In this document: positions 12,026 through 64,000 of the stretch, in pieces
Position numbering within the stretch: the first letter of the stretch is position 1
Layout of the letters: every line of letters starts with the position of its first letter
Assembly (NCBI GenBank): GCA_964016885.1
Contig: OZ024741.1
Coordinates: 24,738,001 to 24,802,000, forward strand
From: Eledone cirrhosa
Taxonomy: Eukaryota
Direction of reading: 5' to 3'
Length of the DNA: 64,000 bases
Notes under the pieces: model-generated
The model's database searches: none
What the model saw: the letters and a program-made list of their open reading frames with translations, nothing else
What the model was told of the DNA's origin: nothing
Program-made: the position numbers and the translations under genes

Positions 12026-15000
12026 CTGTACAAATGAAAGAAAAAATTGAAAAAATTGAAAATATAAAATAAAAAGCAATTAACATAGAATATTAACATT
12101 GTAAATGTATATAACAAAAACAATATTATGTTTGTGTGTTTGTTACATTCATGTTTCATCTTGATGTTGAAAAATATTTTGACCTGTCATTCACCCTTAC
12201 CACACTACACCTTAACAATTCCAGTAGCTTTCTTAATAACAGTCAAAGAATCATTTACATCTATAACACAGATGTTCAAATTGTTCATCAAATACATATT
12301 ATGCCACATTCATAGGAATTGGAAAAATTCCAAGAATTAGAAAAAAAACCTGAATCAAAAGTCCTAAAAGTAAACTTAAAAAAGAGGACAGGAAGTTGAT
12401 AGTTTAAGGGAAGTGGTCTTGCTGGGTATGTTGAAAAACTGGGCAGAAATTTCATGAGATGCAATCAGTGCAATATATGGATGTACAAGAGATGTAGTGG
12501 GATTACAGGTAAACAGTATAATATATGGATGTACAAGAGATGTAGTGGGATTACAGGTGAACAGTGTAATATATGGATGTACAAGAGATGTAGTGGGATT
12601 ACAGGTAAACAGTATAATAATAATAATAATAATGAAATTATTGTGTACAGTGCTCAGGTGCACTACAACTCATCAAAGGTGCATGTATAGTACATAGAAT
12701 AATGTACAAATGTCAGGAAAATGAACAGTGTACGAGTCATGATATAATAACAATAACAATAACGAAATATTGTGTACAGTGCCCAGGTGCACCACAACTC
12801 ATCAAAAAAGTGCATGTACAGTACATAGGGCAATGCACAAACATCAGTCAAATGAACAGTGCACGAGTCATGATACACACATGTGTGCATGTGTATGGAA
12901 GGGGTACATCAGGTGTAGTTTTGGCGTATTTCGGAAAGCATGAGTGTCTTAAAGGATGCAGTGTCTCGGCAGCTAACAATTGACGCTGGCAGTTTGTTCC
13001 ATGCTTCAGCAACTCTGAGCGTGAAAAAATGTCTACGAAAGTCATGGGAGCTGTGCTGTTTTCTGATCTTGTAGGCATGTCCACATGTGTTAGACACATG
13101 GAGATCAAAGAGGCGCTCAGGGTTGCAGTTGGCGAGATGGTTAAAAACTTTGTGGGTATTCACCAAGTCCATTGCCAGACGTCGGAGCTTCAATGAATCC
13201 ATGCCCAGGGAAGCAAGGCGTTCAGAGTATGGTAGGTGTCTGATGGAGGGTATGCGCTTATATGGATGTACAAGAGATGTAGTGGGATTACAGGTGAACA
13301 GTGTAATATATGAATGTACAAGAGATGTACCTGGATTACAGGTAAACAGTGTAATCTATGGATGTACAAGAGATGTAGTGGGATTACAGTTAAACAGTAT
13401 AATATATGGTTGTACAAGATAAATAAAAAACAAGACAGAATAGAGATAAAATAAATTTCTTAAATTGTAAGGGAAGCTCCATAGAAGTTGTTGAGAGCTT
13501 ACTTAGGGAACCTTATCAACAGAAGAGGAAGGTGGTCTGAAATTGTGATAGCCAGGATAAGAGCAGGCGGGAAGTAGTTTAGAAAGCTGGTATTGCTACT
13601 GAAGACCAAGGGTTTCTCCCCCAGAGTGAAGAGTAAACTCTATGGTGCCAGCATGCAAATTCCAATGTTAAATGGTAGTGAGACATGGGTGTTAACTACC
13701 AAAGACCTGTGAAAGTTAGCAATAAATGAAGCAAATGTATACACACACATACATATATACTCATGTCTCGGACATGACTCCCTTAATTTAATTTAATAAA
13801 ATTTATTTCGGATATATACTATATATATATATATATATATATATATATATATATATATATTATAATATGGGGCTAACCGACCAGGGATGTGTAAATCACA
13901 TTTTAGTCAGTCGGCTGTGATGCAGGTAAAATAAAGCACACAACAATATGACTAAATGGTACAAGCTGGAGCATTATGGCCTTCGATCTATTTAATACTA
14001 TATATATGTGTATATATATATTGTTATATTTGGGGAGGGTCATGTTGTTATAATATTGCCAGAAATATATAGTAAAACACACTCACTGTTTGGTTTGGGT
14101 TGGTATATATATATATATAAACAATTTTGTCCACACAGTAAAACAAATGCATATATATCAAACACTTGATGGGGCTTTATATTTTCTAGACTGTTAAAGC
14201 ACACTTTTAGTTTGGTATTCTTGTCTTCTGGTGAGGTAAACCTGGTTACTTTAGGACTTCTGTTAATTCATTTGTAACTCTTTCTATATATTGATGTTGT
14301 CACCACTTCTATTATTGATTCATTGATTTATTGATCTATATGTAACCTGATATCCTATGTGAATAAACTCTGATGATACTAATTTTAAGCCTAATCCCAA
14401 TGGACGAAGTAGAAAATCATAAGGGAATTTTAGATAAACATTCTTTCTTCCTAAGAAATTTCTAAAATTTCTGAATTTATAATTTCACATCCTCAGAATG
14501 AATCTCTATCAGTTGAAACATGTGTTAGTTTGATAACATATAGATTCTTTGGTGTTTCTTATTCTTTATATATCAGCTCTGCATGAACCCTACTGCATTG
14601 AGCTTTAAACCCAATAATAGCAACATTGTTATTATTAAAGTTATATATATATATATATATATATATATTTCATGCTAGCATGGAAAAATGGACGTTAAAC
14701 GCTGATGATAATGATGATGATGATGATTTATGTCCCAAATGTAAAGTATGGGTACATAAAAGATGTAGTGGGATCACGGGTAAACTATCTAAGAACGTAG
14801 ACTTTATATGTGGCTGATGCTCAGGTGCAATAGGTAGCAAGTGTCCACAGGATACTAGCTCCTTCTATTGCCCAGATGGCTCTATAGAAATAGTGGACAC
14901 TTTCCGTTACCTGGGTGACGAAATCAGCAGTGGTGGAGGGTATTCTGAAAGTACAGTAGCCAGAGTCAGAATGGGATGGAAAAAGTTCAAAGAGCTTATA

Positions 15001-18000
15001 CCGCTGTTGGCCACAAAAGGTTTCTCTCTCAAAATGAAAGACAGATTGTATGATGCCTGTATACAAACAGCAATGCTACATGGCAGTGAGACATGGGCAT
15101 TCTGTGCAGAGGACCTGCGTAGACTGGAAAGGAACGAAGCATGCATGCTCCGTTGGATGTGTAATAGTAATATACGTGAACGGCAAAGCATAAATGAACT
15201 AAGTGAGAAATTAGGAATAAGAGGGATCAGATGCTGTTTACTTGAGAGAAGATTACGTTGGTATGACCACGTGATGCGCATGAAAGATGACAGTTGTATA
15301 AAAAAGTGCAGGGCGATCAAAATTGATGGTAGTTACGGAGTAGGTAGACCCAGAAAAACCTGGGACGATCTGATAAATTCCTATTCCTTACACACTTGCA
15401 CCTCTCTAAGACAATGTCACTGGACCGAGATCTTTGGCGCTACACAGTAATACAGAAGACCCGCCTTGCCTATGTACAAAGCGAAACCTAAAGTCAGTAG
15501 GGACCTCTTAACCAAATATACACCCCAATCCACTACCCCTACCCTATCCTACCACTCCCACCAATACCACCCTCTCTCTGTAAAGTTGGTACCACAACAT
15601 CCAGTCCAAATAAATGAGATAATGAGATTGAGATCGTGTAGGTGTCACGAGAAAAAAAACACATAGTCCACGCTGTAATGTGGCCATGTAGGTAACACGG
15701 TAAAAATTTCTCAGTCCACACTGTAAATGTGGTGTGTAAGGAAGGGCATCCAGCCGTAGAAAACCTGCCAGATAGTCCTATATGAGCAAGACACGGTCAC
15801 CCGACCAACCTTGTCTCAAGTGGGACAACTCCTGTCTAACCCATGCTAGCGTGGAAGATGGACGTTAAACGAAGATGATGATGATGATGATGATGATATT
15901 CAGTGTAAGAGATATATTTTAGCTAAGGCCTAAACATACTCACAAAGAGAATCATGGTCTTAATGATGTTTGCCAAAATCGATAATTGGTAATTGATAGT
16001 AATTACTGTAATCGATGGTGAACATTCTATCTTCTCTGATTCTCAGAAACAGATCTGTCTATGGAAGTACAGCTATCGAAGTACATCATCTTTATGTGAG
16101 TACAGCAATATTCTAACACTTAAGAGTTTTAAATTTGTATTTAAATCAACATATCAAATAAAGAAGTGAAGAAAAACTTACTGTATTTGTATTGACTGGT
16201 AAGTTTTAAAGTTGCTGTTGTTTTAGAACCAAGGATAATTGGTAATAATTCATTGTATGTTATATATTGAAGTACAGCACCAATTATATCTCGTGTTGTA
16301 TAAAATAACTGGTCATTATTCCAATGAGGGTTCAATAGGTGAAGTTTCCATGCTATCCTGTTGTGTTCTCGGAGAAATATTGTTTGGATAGTAAGAAGAT
16401 TAATGTTATTATTACTTCTCTCATCTCCTGTAACAGAAATAAAGAACAATAAGGAGAATTTACTTTCAAGACAGTGTACAAATTGATATCTTTAGATTAG
16501 GTACCAAGATATATATTGCTGGTATTTGTTTTATAGACAATGTTGTAGTTATAAGGAAACATCAGAGAATTTACTTTCAAAAGTATATCTTTGATATCTT
16601 TAGATTAGATTCCAAGATATTTATTGCTGGTATTTGTTTTATAGACAATGTTATAGTTGCCTTTGTTTAACTGTTAGTCAGCCTTGATTTAATAGAACTA
16701 TAATCAAACATTATCCTCATTTAGGTATAATGTATCTTGGACTATATCATTAATTGTGTCCTTCTTTTTCTTTAAATGATATGGTGTTTTCTGTGGGAGA
16801 TTTGACTGTTATTTCTAGAATATCCAAAGACACCGATTGTAAAAAAAATGCAATGGAAATTCGCTTTTGTTATGTGTATGACTGGTACTTATTTTATAGA
16901 CCTGTGTATATCACTGGTACTAAGCAAGTCAAGGAGAGAACTGTCTCTCTCTCTCTCTCTCTCTCTCTCTATATATATATATATAAACGCACGTGGAAAA
17001 ATAAATGTAGGAGAACAAACCGTTAAAACATGTTTATTTAAAATAGCACCTACGTACGTTTCGCCCGAATGGGCTTCTCAAGGGCATAAATAACTAAAAA
17101 GTGTTCCTTACATGACTCGGAATGGGTTTTTAGAGATAAGTTCAGGTCAGAGTTCATTCTTCATAAAAAAACACGTAGTGATTTTGCAGTAGGTCAAGGG
17201 AGATAACTCTGGCCGGTGTTAGGGCAGTCTTTTCCGGACAAATTTTTTATCCGTTACCAGTATGTGGCTACTACCTTACCATTGTCGATACACATAGGAT
17301 CAGGTATGCAACGTTTGTTTCAAGACGTTTGTTTGCAGCGCCTGCCCACCTGGGTCGATTCATGCCGGGTCTGGGATGCATGGTTAGTTTCCGGATGTTT
17401 TTTGCAGCGCCTGGCCGTCGGGGTGTTAAAGCTTGGTGTAGGGAGACCTGGTTTACGGTTTCACTCCTCGTTCTTATTCCATCTGGAGTAGGATATTTTT
17501 AAGCGGTGTGTACAGCTTATCGTCGTTTCAGCTCTGCTGTTCATGAGCTCGTGGGGTGCCGTTATGATGTGGTAGAACTCCATGATGCAAAGCTCGCACT
17601 TCCTCTTGAAGTTGTACGGTGCAGCCCTGCCGACAATTTCCCAGTGCGTGGAGAAGCTGATGTTTGAGTCTTTTAATGCTGTGATGTAGTTCGCGAGCGA
17701 AGTGGAGTGTCTTAGTTTCTTGTTTGCGAAAGAGTGGAGATGTGTTCGAAATTTAATTTTGAACTGGCCAGAAGTAGCCTAGCCCCTATATAATGTTTAA
17801 CGCTATTATGGCTAGTTACGGTGCACCTATATATAACCCTATCAGTCAAGCAGGTCCCCCTAAGGGGGCAGCGTCTCCTGTCGCGGCAGTTGCAATTTCG
17901 GTCGTGGTCCCTTCTAGTTCCCACGGTAATGCTATTATTATTGCTATCTACATTGTTACCTACGCTCCCATACCTGTCATTAGCACCATTATAACCCACT

Positions 18001-63421: not shown

Positions 63422-64000
63422 GTAAGTTTTTCTTCACTTCTTTATTTGATATGTTGATTTAAATACAAATTTAAAACTCTTAAGTGTTAGAATATTGCTG
63501 TACTCACATAAAGATGATGTACTTCGATAGCTGTACTTCCATAGACAGATCTGTTTCTGAGAATCAGAGAAGATAGAATGTTCACCATCGATTACAGTAA
63601 TTACTATCAATTACCAATTATCGATTTTGGCAAACATCATTAAGACCATGATTCTCTTTGTGAGTATGTTTAGGTCTTAGCTAAAATATATCTCTTACAC
63701 TGTATATATATATAAATCACCATCATCATTATCATCAGCGTTTAACGTCCATTTTTCCATGCTAGCATGAAATATATATATATATATATATAACTTTAAT
63801 AATAACAATGTTGCTATTATTGGGTTTAAAGCTCAATGCAGTAGGGTTCATGCAGAGCTGATATATAAAGAATAAGAAACACCAAAGAATCTATATGTTA
63901 TCAAACTAACACATGTTTCAACTGATAGAGATTCATTCTGAGGATGTGAAATTATAAATTCAGAAATTTTAGAAATTTTTAGGAAGAAAGAATGTTTATC

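Follow-up and report, generated by a model that had tools for sequence, protein, structure and literature searches.

A palindrome in Eledone cirrhosa carrying head-to-head copies of a probable pseudo-peroxidase gene with and without a histidine-rich polymer

A 64,000-nt stretch of the genome of Eledone cirrhosa (assembly GCA_964016885.1, contig OZ024741.1, forward-strand positions 24,738,001 to 24,802,000), hereafter the window, contains a large palindrome whose arms carry two diverging copies, A and B, of one gene. The scaffold encoded by this gene is a peroxidase without its catalytic residues, which is new with respect to an earlier note on this DNA, and a loop of copy A holds a histidine-rich block polymer that copy B has lost. 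On balance, we lean towards a real, older octopod inverted duplication kept by gene conversion and bearing a structural pseudo-peroxidase gene with a His polymer. The combination of a dead peroxidase, a 1,500-residue His block polymer and a polymer-less copy placed head to head appears to be undescribed, and its parts each have precedent. All coordinates are positions within the window, translations were made by a program, and one assembly was examined.

Results

Ten exons were traced in gene A and nine in gene B (Table 1), with AG acceptors and GT donors throughout except for a GC donor after exon 2, giving open frames of 2,199 and 510 codons, respectively. Only four coding substitutions separate the copies, two of them synonymous; the 875 coding bases outside exon 6 hold three differences (two synonymous changes and the Q/R codon of exon 9). 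This codon and the exon 6 junction are as the earlier note described them, and its reading of the pair as head-to-head long and short paralogs is confirmed by an in-frame difference of 4,548 nt in exon 6 beside near-identical upstream DNA.

Exons 9 and 10 matched the Pfam family An_peroxidase (PF03098; E 1e-29 and 2e-21, respectively), and a match to lactoperoxidase was found in the PDB (E 6e-7); a PDB search with exon 4 gave nothing useful. The superfamily signature, as outlined in excerpts of PMC4420034, comprises GQxxDHD, RxxE and a proximal His bonded to Asn. The window protein instead reads SQAISND and RSNN at the first two, and its two proximal positions, which lie in exon 10 of gene A, are both Tyr. 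The alignment showed that the calcium motif TSFLDGS, the Asp of SND, the distal Gln, the distal Arg and the Arg of RGRDHG are retained. The distal His, lost here, was present in all 13 homologues covering the site, whereas the ester Glu, replaced by Asn, was also missing from 2 of 14 non-octopod homologues. Loss of a haem His is uncommon but not unique among the 269 homologues: by pattern matching, the proximal His was missing in 6 of the 214 with a recognisable proximal motif, and the distal His in 8 of 167. Two insect homologues (P0182 and P0268) have Asn in place of the distal His, as does the window protein. With both haem His, the Asn that pairs with the proximal one and both ester residues lost, the protein is a probable pseudo-enzyme, a dead enzyme that probably no longer turns over peroxide. 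The integrin-binding KGD or RGD motif of peroxinectin (family 3) did not occur in the 2,199 residues, the C-terminal exons lying outside the window.

The best relative in a HMMER search of 1.84 billion representatives was A0A0L8IF09 (P0004), an uncharacterised protein of Octopus bimaculoides (E 2e-60; next best 2e-14), which is 68% identical to the window protein over 321 residues. Taken by itself, this relative points to a probable octopod host other than O. bimaculoides, and the repeat landscape is in keeping with that. It was placed as its sister (SH-aLRT 100), with a branch of 1.51 changes per column leading to the two octopod proteins, in a quick tree of 35 chosen rows of the 269 that gave long-branch warnings and from which only this sister link was relied on. 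The model of A0A0L8IF09 opens with residues matching the intron-6 acceptor of the window read in frame; the two genes therefore have this intron position in common, and the break in the model comes directly behind the repeat exon. Lacking exons 1 to 6, and hence the distal motif, this protein keeps the proximal His and has lost the ester Glu and the proximal Asn. A word-based search with exon 10 returned only relatives of 26-30% identity and missed the octopus protein, so the absence of closer cephalopod matches is weak evidence. In the open-access literature, which leaves aside subscription papers and supplements (the latter could list the protein), no description of the gene or of an octopus palindrome was found.

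Alternatively, the palindrome could be real and the protein an atypical haem or metal enzyme, with catalase-type Tyr ligation, or with Cu sites in the polymer that oxidise catechol and let A cross-link itself. The retained distal Gln and Arg, calcium motif and Arg of RGRDHG point that way, as do the proximal His of the octopus relative and the substituting Tyr, a possible iron ligand. However, changes have hit five positions of the active site at once (the distal and proximal His, the Asn partner of the latter, and both ester residues), a long branch leads to the two octopod proteins, and dual oxidase domains without a proximal His have no peroxidase activity (as given in excerpts of PMC4420034), which makes such an enzyme unlikely.

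The polymer sits in a loop that counts 1,725 residues in A and, with the polymer lost, 209 in B, where 14 homologues have 23-43; downstream, both copies keep a dibasic RNKR site. In the polymer, His/Ser/Ala blocks separate runs of a [14 protein letters not shown] decamer, of which there are 70 in all. The segment missing from B amounts to 1,516 residues (171 kDa) with 28.9% His, 15.4% Ser, about 9.5% each of Pro, Leu and Gly, and 7.8% Tyr. Exon 6 is free of stops in its coding frame only. Variation among decamers was 0.13 at third codon positions in contrast with 0.05 and 0.08 at the other two, and single-base changes among the 70 decamers covered 12 of 20 possible synonymous against 17 of 67 possible non-synonymous ones. 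The single open frame, the third-position variation and the synonymous excess thus indicated that the repeat evolves as protein, and we consider the polymer, placed in a surface loop, to be probably structural or metal-binding. The long opposite-strand open reading frames (ORFs) of exon 6 were rejected as genes, the five non-coding frames containing 19-298 stops. A homologue search with exon 6 of B scored none of 43 candidates, which is weak evidence as these were only 383-2,000 amino acids long.

The short copy arose by an in-frame deletion of 4,548 bp: exon 6 of B is that of A minus this segment, with a 3-bp microhomology and one substitution 7 bp from the junction. Expansion of the polymer in A was rejected, as non-repetitive sequence stands at both ends of the lost part in A and other losses in B cut elements that are whole in A.

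Self-comparison of the window showed an inverted duplication with the arms and spacer that the earlier note had claimed (29,578 bp, at least 18,548 bp and 1,442 bp, respectively; Table 1), an inverted match far beyond chance. The two ATGs, said to diverge 7.9 kb apart with duplicated upstream DNA, lie at 40793(-) and 48670(+), separated by 7,877 bp with the genes pointing outward, and the 2 kb upstream of them differ at five positions between copies. BLAST and a chained alignment resolved nine main collinear blocks of 89.5-99.5% identity. Between them lie arm-specific pieces of 0.3-4.5 kb, in line with the kb-scale indels described before; those found only in A measured 713, 2,063, about 400, 4,545, about 4,260 and 1,117 bp, and those only in B 885, about 350 and 354 bp in the chained alignment. 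A 48-bp array also differed in length between arms (15.6 vs. 24.6 units), and about 11 kb of arm A had no partner in B.

Divergence was counted over aligned columns outside microsatellites (n = 15,181). The arms differed at 104 of these (0.69%, or 99.3% identity), with islands where identity dropped to 96-98%. These substitutions, which the earlier note called scattered, were instead clustered: they reached 3.2% in the 50 bp next to large differences and the spacer vs. 0.16% beyond 800 bp, three runs of 2.1-2.3 kb had no arm difference at all, and the exon-5 island diverged by 3.6%. Put more broadly, divergence was about 1.7-3% beside large indels vs. 0.16% far from them. In a test of this gradient that left out the first 10 bp, 5 bp around small gaps and the Penelope block, 27 of 1,627 columns differed at 10-150 bp from a heterology and 13 of 8,108 beyond 800 bp (Fisher P = 1e-12); without the tip and the exon-5 island the near count was 12 of 1,271 against the same 13 of 8,108 (P = 3e-5), both P values overstating significance because sites are not independent, which tells against the conversion reading below. 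A circular shift retaining the clustering gave P of about 0.013.

At the inner tip, next to the spacer, 7 of 42 bases differed (95% interval 7-31%), and the adjoining 640 bp were identical. The older copy of the tip repeat in the spacer served as outgroup; it matched A at five of the differing sites and B at the other two, giving five changes derived in B and two in A, a polarity that rests on a single copy of 64-67% identity and is to that extent a point on the other side. On the B side, and not on the A side, the alignment to this spacer copy ran on into the spacer for about 45 bp; B would therefore hold the parent junction, and with most derived tip changes on B, mutagenesis at the junction is a poor explanation. 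The Penelope-like piece shared by both arms diverged by 3.3%; of its 14 coding-frame changes 2 were synonymous, and CpG sites accounted for 13 of its 24 transitions, which points to decay in place. Because divergence rises towards heterologies, both tips carry derived changes and the dead Penelope-like piece has diverged in place, the pattern is better explained by an old duplication in which patchy conversion between the arms has kept them similar than by a recent copy or by alleles joined together, and the duplication would then be older than its 99% identity suggests. Of the two origins that the earlier note had left open, the older, homogenised one fits best on the gradient, the tip and the Penelope-like pair, and the recent one is less favoured.

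That A and B are alleles set head to head by scaffolding and gap filling, with the short form a deletion allele, was the earlier note's own caveat and remains as a rival, though an improbable one. A divergence of 0.69% with kb-scale indels is within the range of marine invertebrate haplotypes, and haplotig duplication is a known problem of mollusc assemblies. The artefact is made less likely by the absence of N characters in the window and by the unique spacer, in which an inverted exact match of at least 10 bp was sought and none found, so that there is no overlap for joining two alleles. The tip, with derived changes on both sides and 640 identical bp next to it, also resembles an old heterology and not a contig end.

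Equally little probability was given to an inverted duplication of recent date that was later hit by a wave of deletions with error-prone repair, which would make conversion unnecessary. It would account for the 0.16% divergence over most of the aligned length and for the exon-6 and 713-bp junctions, with little flanking divergence and short microhomology. Against it, the intact B side, and not the joined A side, carries five of the seven changes at the tip, the dead 1.2-kb element is 3.3% apart throughout, about seven large differences per 104 substitutions is a high ratio, and the mariner-like copy found only in B is itself decayed.

Frames of a long interspersed element (LINE) cross the junctions of the 713-bp and 2,063-bp pieces in A, which are therefore deletions in B. 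When the B losses were placed at random and the trials sparing scaffold exons counted, the scaffold was spared in 26% of trials for two losses, 3% for three intronic losses and 0.3% for four losses, the exon-6 loss included. This placement test gives modest support for selection on B. A six-loss version (P = 0.001) was dropped since it took all differences as deletions in B.

The earlier note had suggested a two-component system, i.e., that A and B form a selected pair of scaffolds with and without polymer, co-expressed from shared upstream DNA. The similarity of the upstream 2 kb, the open frame of B and the losses that spare its scaffold are consistent with such a pair. The short form is, however, a simple in-frame deletion, an outcome with a one-in-three chance, at whose junction no divergence has built up (0 of 140 and 0 of 140 flanking columns), so that the exon-6 deletion may be recent; in addition, the coding substitutions are few, half of them synonymous, and the 3' end of B lies outside the window. 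The suggestion thus found no support, and we hold the selected pair to be very doubtful. Co-regulation of A and B, considered on the upstream sequence, is plausible. An amplification fold-back chimera (PMC6218980, in its available part) was dismissed, as it copies one molecule and could not give arm-specific transposons.

Table 1. Features of the palindrome, the two gene copies and the arm-specific elements (positions in the window).
Feature	Positions	Strand	Remarks
Arm A	14433..44010	-	29,578 bp; outer end is only where arm B exits the window
Unique spacer	44011..45452		1,442 bp; older copy of the tip SINE-like repeat at 44706-44899
Arm B	45453..64000	+	18,548 bp in window; cut at window end
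SINE-like repeat over inner boundary	45400..45600	-	About 45 bp into spacer on B side; A side cut at boundary (43863-44010)
Gene A exon 1	40754..40793	-	ATG; hydrophobic signal-peptide-like start, by eye
Gene A exon 2	40390..40414	-	GC donor
Gene A exon 3	36176..36333	-	
Gene A exon 4	35782..35961	-	Distal motif SQAISND, not GQxxDHD
Gene A exon 5	31197..31224	-	
Gene A exon 6	25326..30529	-	5,204 nt; His block polymer; RNKR dibasic site downstream
Gene A exon 7	24246..24335	-	Calcium motif TSFLDGS retained
Gene A exon 8	23060..23167	-	
Gene A exon 9	16182..16427	-	Distal Arg retained, ester Glu to Asn; Gln at Q/R codon; Pfam An_peroxidase E 1e-29
Gene A exon 10	11506..12025	-	Proximal His to Tyr, partner Asn to Tyr; later exons beyond window
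Gene B exon 1	48670..48709	+	
Gene B exon 2	49049..49073	+	GC donor
Gene B exon 3	53548..53705	+	
Gene B exon 4	53923..54102	+	
Gene B exon 5	56776..56803	+	
Gene B exon 6	57428..58083	+	656 nt; Tyr/Ser/Pro-rich loop and RNKR retained
Gene B exon 7	59077..59166	+	
Gene B exon 8	60245..60352	+	
Gene B exon 9	63176..63421	+	Arg at Q/R codon; exon 10 would fall past window
A-only 713 bp	34297..35009		LINE frame crosses junction in A
A-only 2,063 bp	31402..33464		LINE frame continuous over junction in A; B has mariner-like element at site
Penelope-like element in A	16974..20070	-	B has only the last 1.2 kb (61048-62267)
B-only decayed mariner-like element	55700..56580	+	Flanked by TA; 2 mismatches between its terminal inverted repeats; transposase spread over several frames

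The repeat over the inner boundary is presumably a short interspersed element (SINE), and the elements called Penelope-like and, in B alone, mariner-like are those we take to belong to these families; 11 of 14 ORFs had no Pfam match, among them those of the Penelope-like and mariner-like pieces. A microsatellite with a 10-bp flank is repeated on both sides of the Penelope-like piece in B (60948-61047 and 62622-62660) and present on one side only in A, possibly through a target duplication or a templated insertion where the deletion occurred. Introns of gene A hold two RTE-type copies (9235-10697 and 20128-21603) that share 94.9% identity and are absent from B. Intron 10 of gene A also contains a 22-bp satellite (40-8650 and 10700-11351, with 371 and 28 copies, respectively) interrupted by an RTE-type LINE fragment with a 483-codon frame bearing reverse transcriptase and a PHD finger. 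A near-perfect nested hairpin of about 230 nt, found only in A (22050-22281; -138.9 kcal/mol, z -28), is possibly a fold-back element or a repair scar; Rfam gave no match over the window, this hairpin included.

Upstream of the ATGs both arms carry a dead element that we assume to be mariner-like (41360-42530 and 46930-48100) and that holds most of the few upstream substitutions. Tandem repeats of 45/66 bp with a short palindromic core (41039-41262 and 48201-48424) lie 250-470 bp upstream of each ATG, and 40-bp TATA-like tandem repeats (40528-40704 and 48759-48935) in intron 1 of both copies; both sets are possible regulatory elements. An acceptor-like pyrimidine tract with AG directly precedes the ATG at 48655-48670, which leaves room for a further, non-coding exon at the 5' end and for a transcription start closer to the spacer. 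In both copies a 68-bp tandem duplication (22935-23076 and 60336-60482) takes in the last part of exon 8 and its donor; splicing at the second donor would shift the frame.

Discussion

In the explanation that we prefer, a real octopod duplication kept alike by conversion, the B side would mark the parent position beside the spacer, and A would have been joined to the other end of the spacer. The pattern of divergence is as expected if pairing over the short spacer lets each arm act as a template for the other. Such gene conversion would clear substitutions from long unbroken stretches and stop at large indels and at the spacer; old divergence would survive beside these because conversion cannot cross them. 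Large deletions would have built up mainly in B, sparing the scaffold exons, and one of them removed the His polymer in frame. The gene product, presumably secreted, has the peroxidase-cyclooxygenase fold but neither of the haem His nor either ester residue, and its role, by analogy with known polymers, is most likely structural. Its folded domain may deliver and anchor the His/Ser/Pro/Gly/Tyr polymer, which might condense at seawater pH as His deprotonates, or bind Zn or Cu, and another oxidase may cross-link its Tyr and His. By the same analogy, the polymer could become part of a hard or adhesive structure outside the cell (beak, radula, sucker cuticle or egg cement, for instance), B being either a dosage copy or an early-stage derivative without polymer.

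Several other points weigh against this explanation. Six of 15 boundaries, including both sides of the exon-6 deletion, had no substitution at 10-150 bp, so some indels, perhaps the exon-6 deletion, are recent or constrained. The 4.3-kb and 1.1-kb differences are of uncertain polarity, and the two-deletion placement test was non-significant (26%). Alleles likewise show raised divergence beside old indels. As for the gene, A0A0L8IF09 keeps its proximal His and haem binding is therefore not lost clade-wide; exon 6 contained no GHGxY motif; and an Atlas search with polymer residues 200-700 returned at best 0.83, for unrelated families, and was left unused. Finally, conversion is read from the pattern in one assembly, whereas for primate palindromes a cross-species test was used, in which arms should resemble each other more within a species than between species (excerpts of PMC8327919).

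The gene matters more than the palindrome, as a candidate for how octopods might harden or glue without the squid families of histidine-rich beak proteins (HBPs) and suckerins, and the natural pair with and without polymer provides a built-in control. A bolder version, to which we attach little credence, is that octopods evolved their own His-rich polymer in the loop of a dead peroxidase, that the palindrome keeps scaffold and promoter identical while leaving polymer length free, and that long and short subunits tune the material; such a polymer would have been missed because a 5-kb repeat exon breaks gene models.

The palindrome itself is a mollusc example of a known structure, gene-bearing palindromes occurring also on mouse sex chromosomes and in willow, and it makes the balance between conversion and indel barriers visible within 30 kb. 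It shares with the gene palindromes of primate X chromosomes, as presented in the available part of PMC8327919, arms above 10 kb, a short unique spacer, head-to-head copies, blocks of about 99% identity and signs of conversion. In contrast, its arms are broken by about seven differences of 0.3-4.5 kb and encode very different proteins in a mollusc host, whereas primate arms differ by less than 0.2%.

With the peroxidase-cyclooxygenase superfamily (lactoperoxidase, myeloperoxidase, chorion peroxidase, peroxinectin, and the molluscan shell and ink peroxidases) the window protein shares PF03098, 30-37% identity, the calcium motif, the distal Gln and Arg and the Cys pattern, and it differs in the replacement of both His, both ester residues and the Asn, and in a hugely longer loop. 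The peroxidase-homology domain of dual oxidase (DUOX) likewise has a peroxidase fold without the proximal His, and is inactive with another role; unlike dual oxidase, the window protein has no transmembrane, EF-hand or NADPH oxidase part in the exons present, and it grouped with molluscan peroxidases in the quick tree, which had no DUOX rows. Peroxidase-like transcripts, not linked to the window gene, are described, in the parts of the sources available, from the octopus oviducal gland (PMC8976471) and from salivary and digestive glands (PMC12607849), as are peroxidases in mollusc shell matrices (PMC5379566; 10.1101/2021.07.10.451900), again without link to this gene.

For the polymer, the closest analogues are HBPs, suckerins, NVJP-1 of Nereis and MTP of Glycera, which are secreted proteins with tandem repeats rich in His, Gly and Tyr, secretion of the window protein being predicted. 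No sequence homology to them was detectable. HBPs of squid are marked by tandem GHGxY pentapeptides (excerpts of PMC11931252), by coacervation triggered by pH and by expression in the buccal mass, and both HBPs and suckerins are given as not found in O. bimaculoides in the available part of PMC9068888. The window polymer lacks GHGxY and GAGFA, is rich in Ser and Pro and poor in Ala, is far longer, and lies inside a folded enzyme domain. Suckerins alternate Ala/His/Thr beta blocks with amorphous Gly/Tyr blocks (excerpts of PMC9999432, also the source of the analogy with NVJP and MTP). The window polymer similarly alternates two block types, here His/Ser/Ala in one and Gly-His-Tyr-Leu-Pro in the other (inspection by eye showed no repeats of the GGY type), and its His content (29%) is close to that of NVJP (27%).

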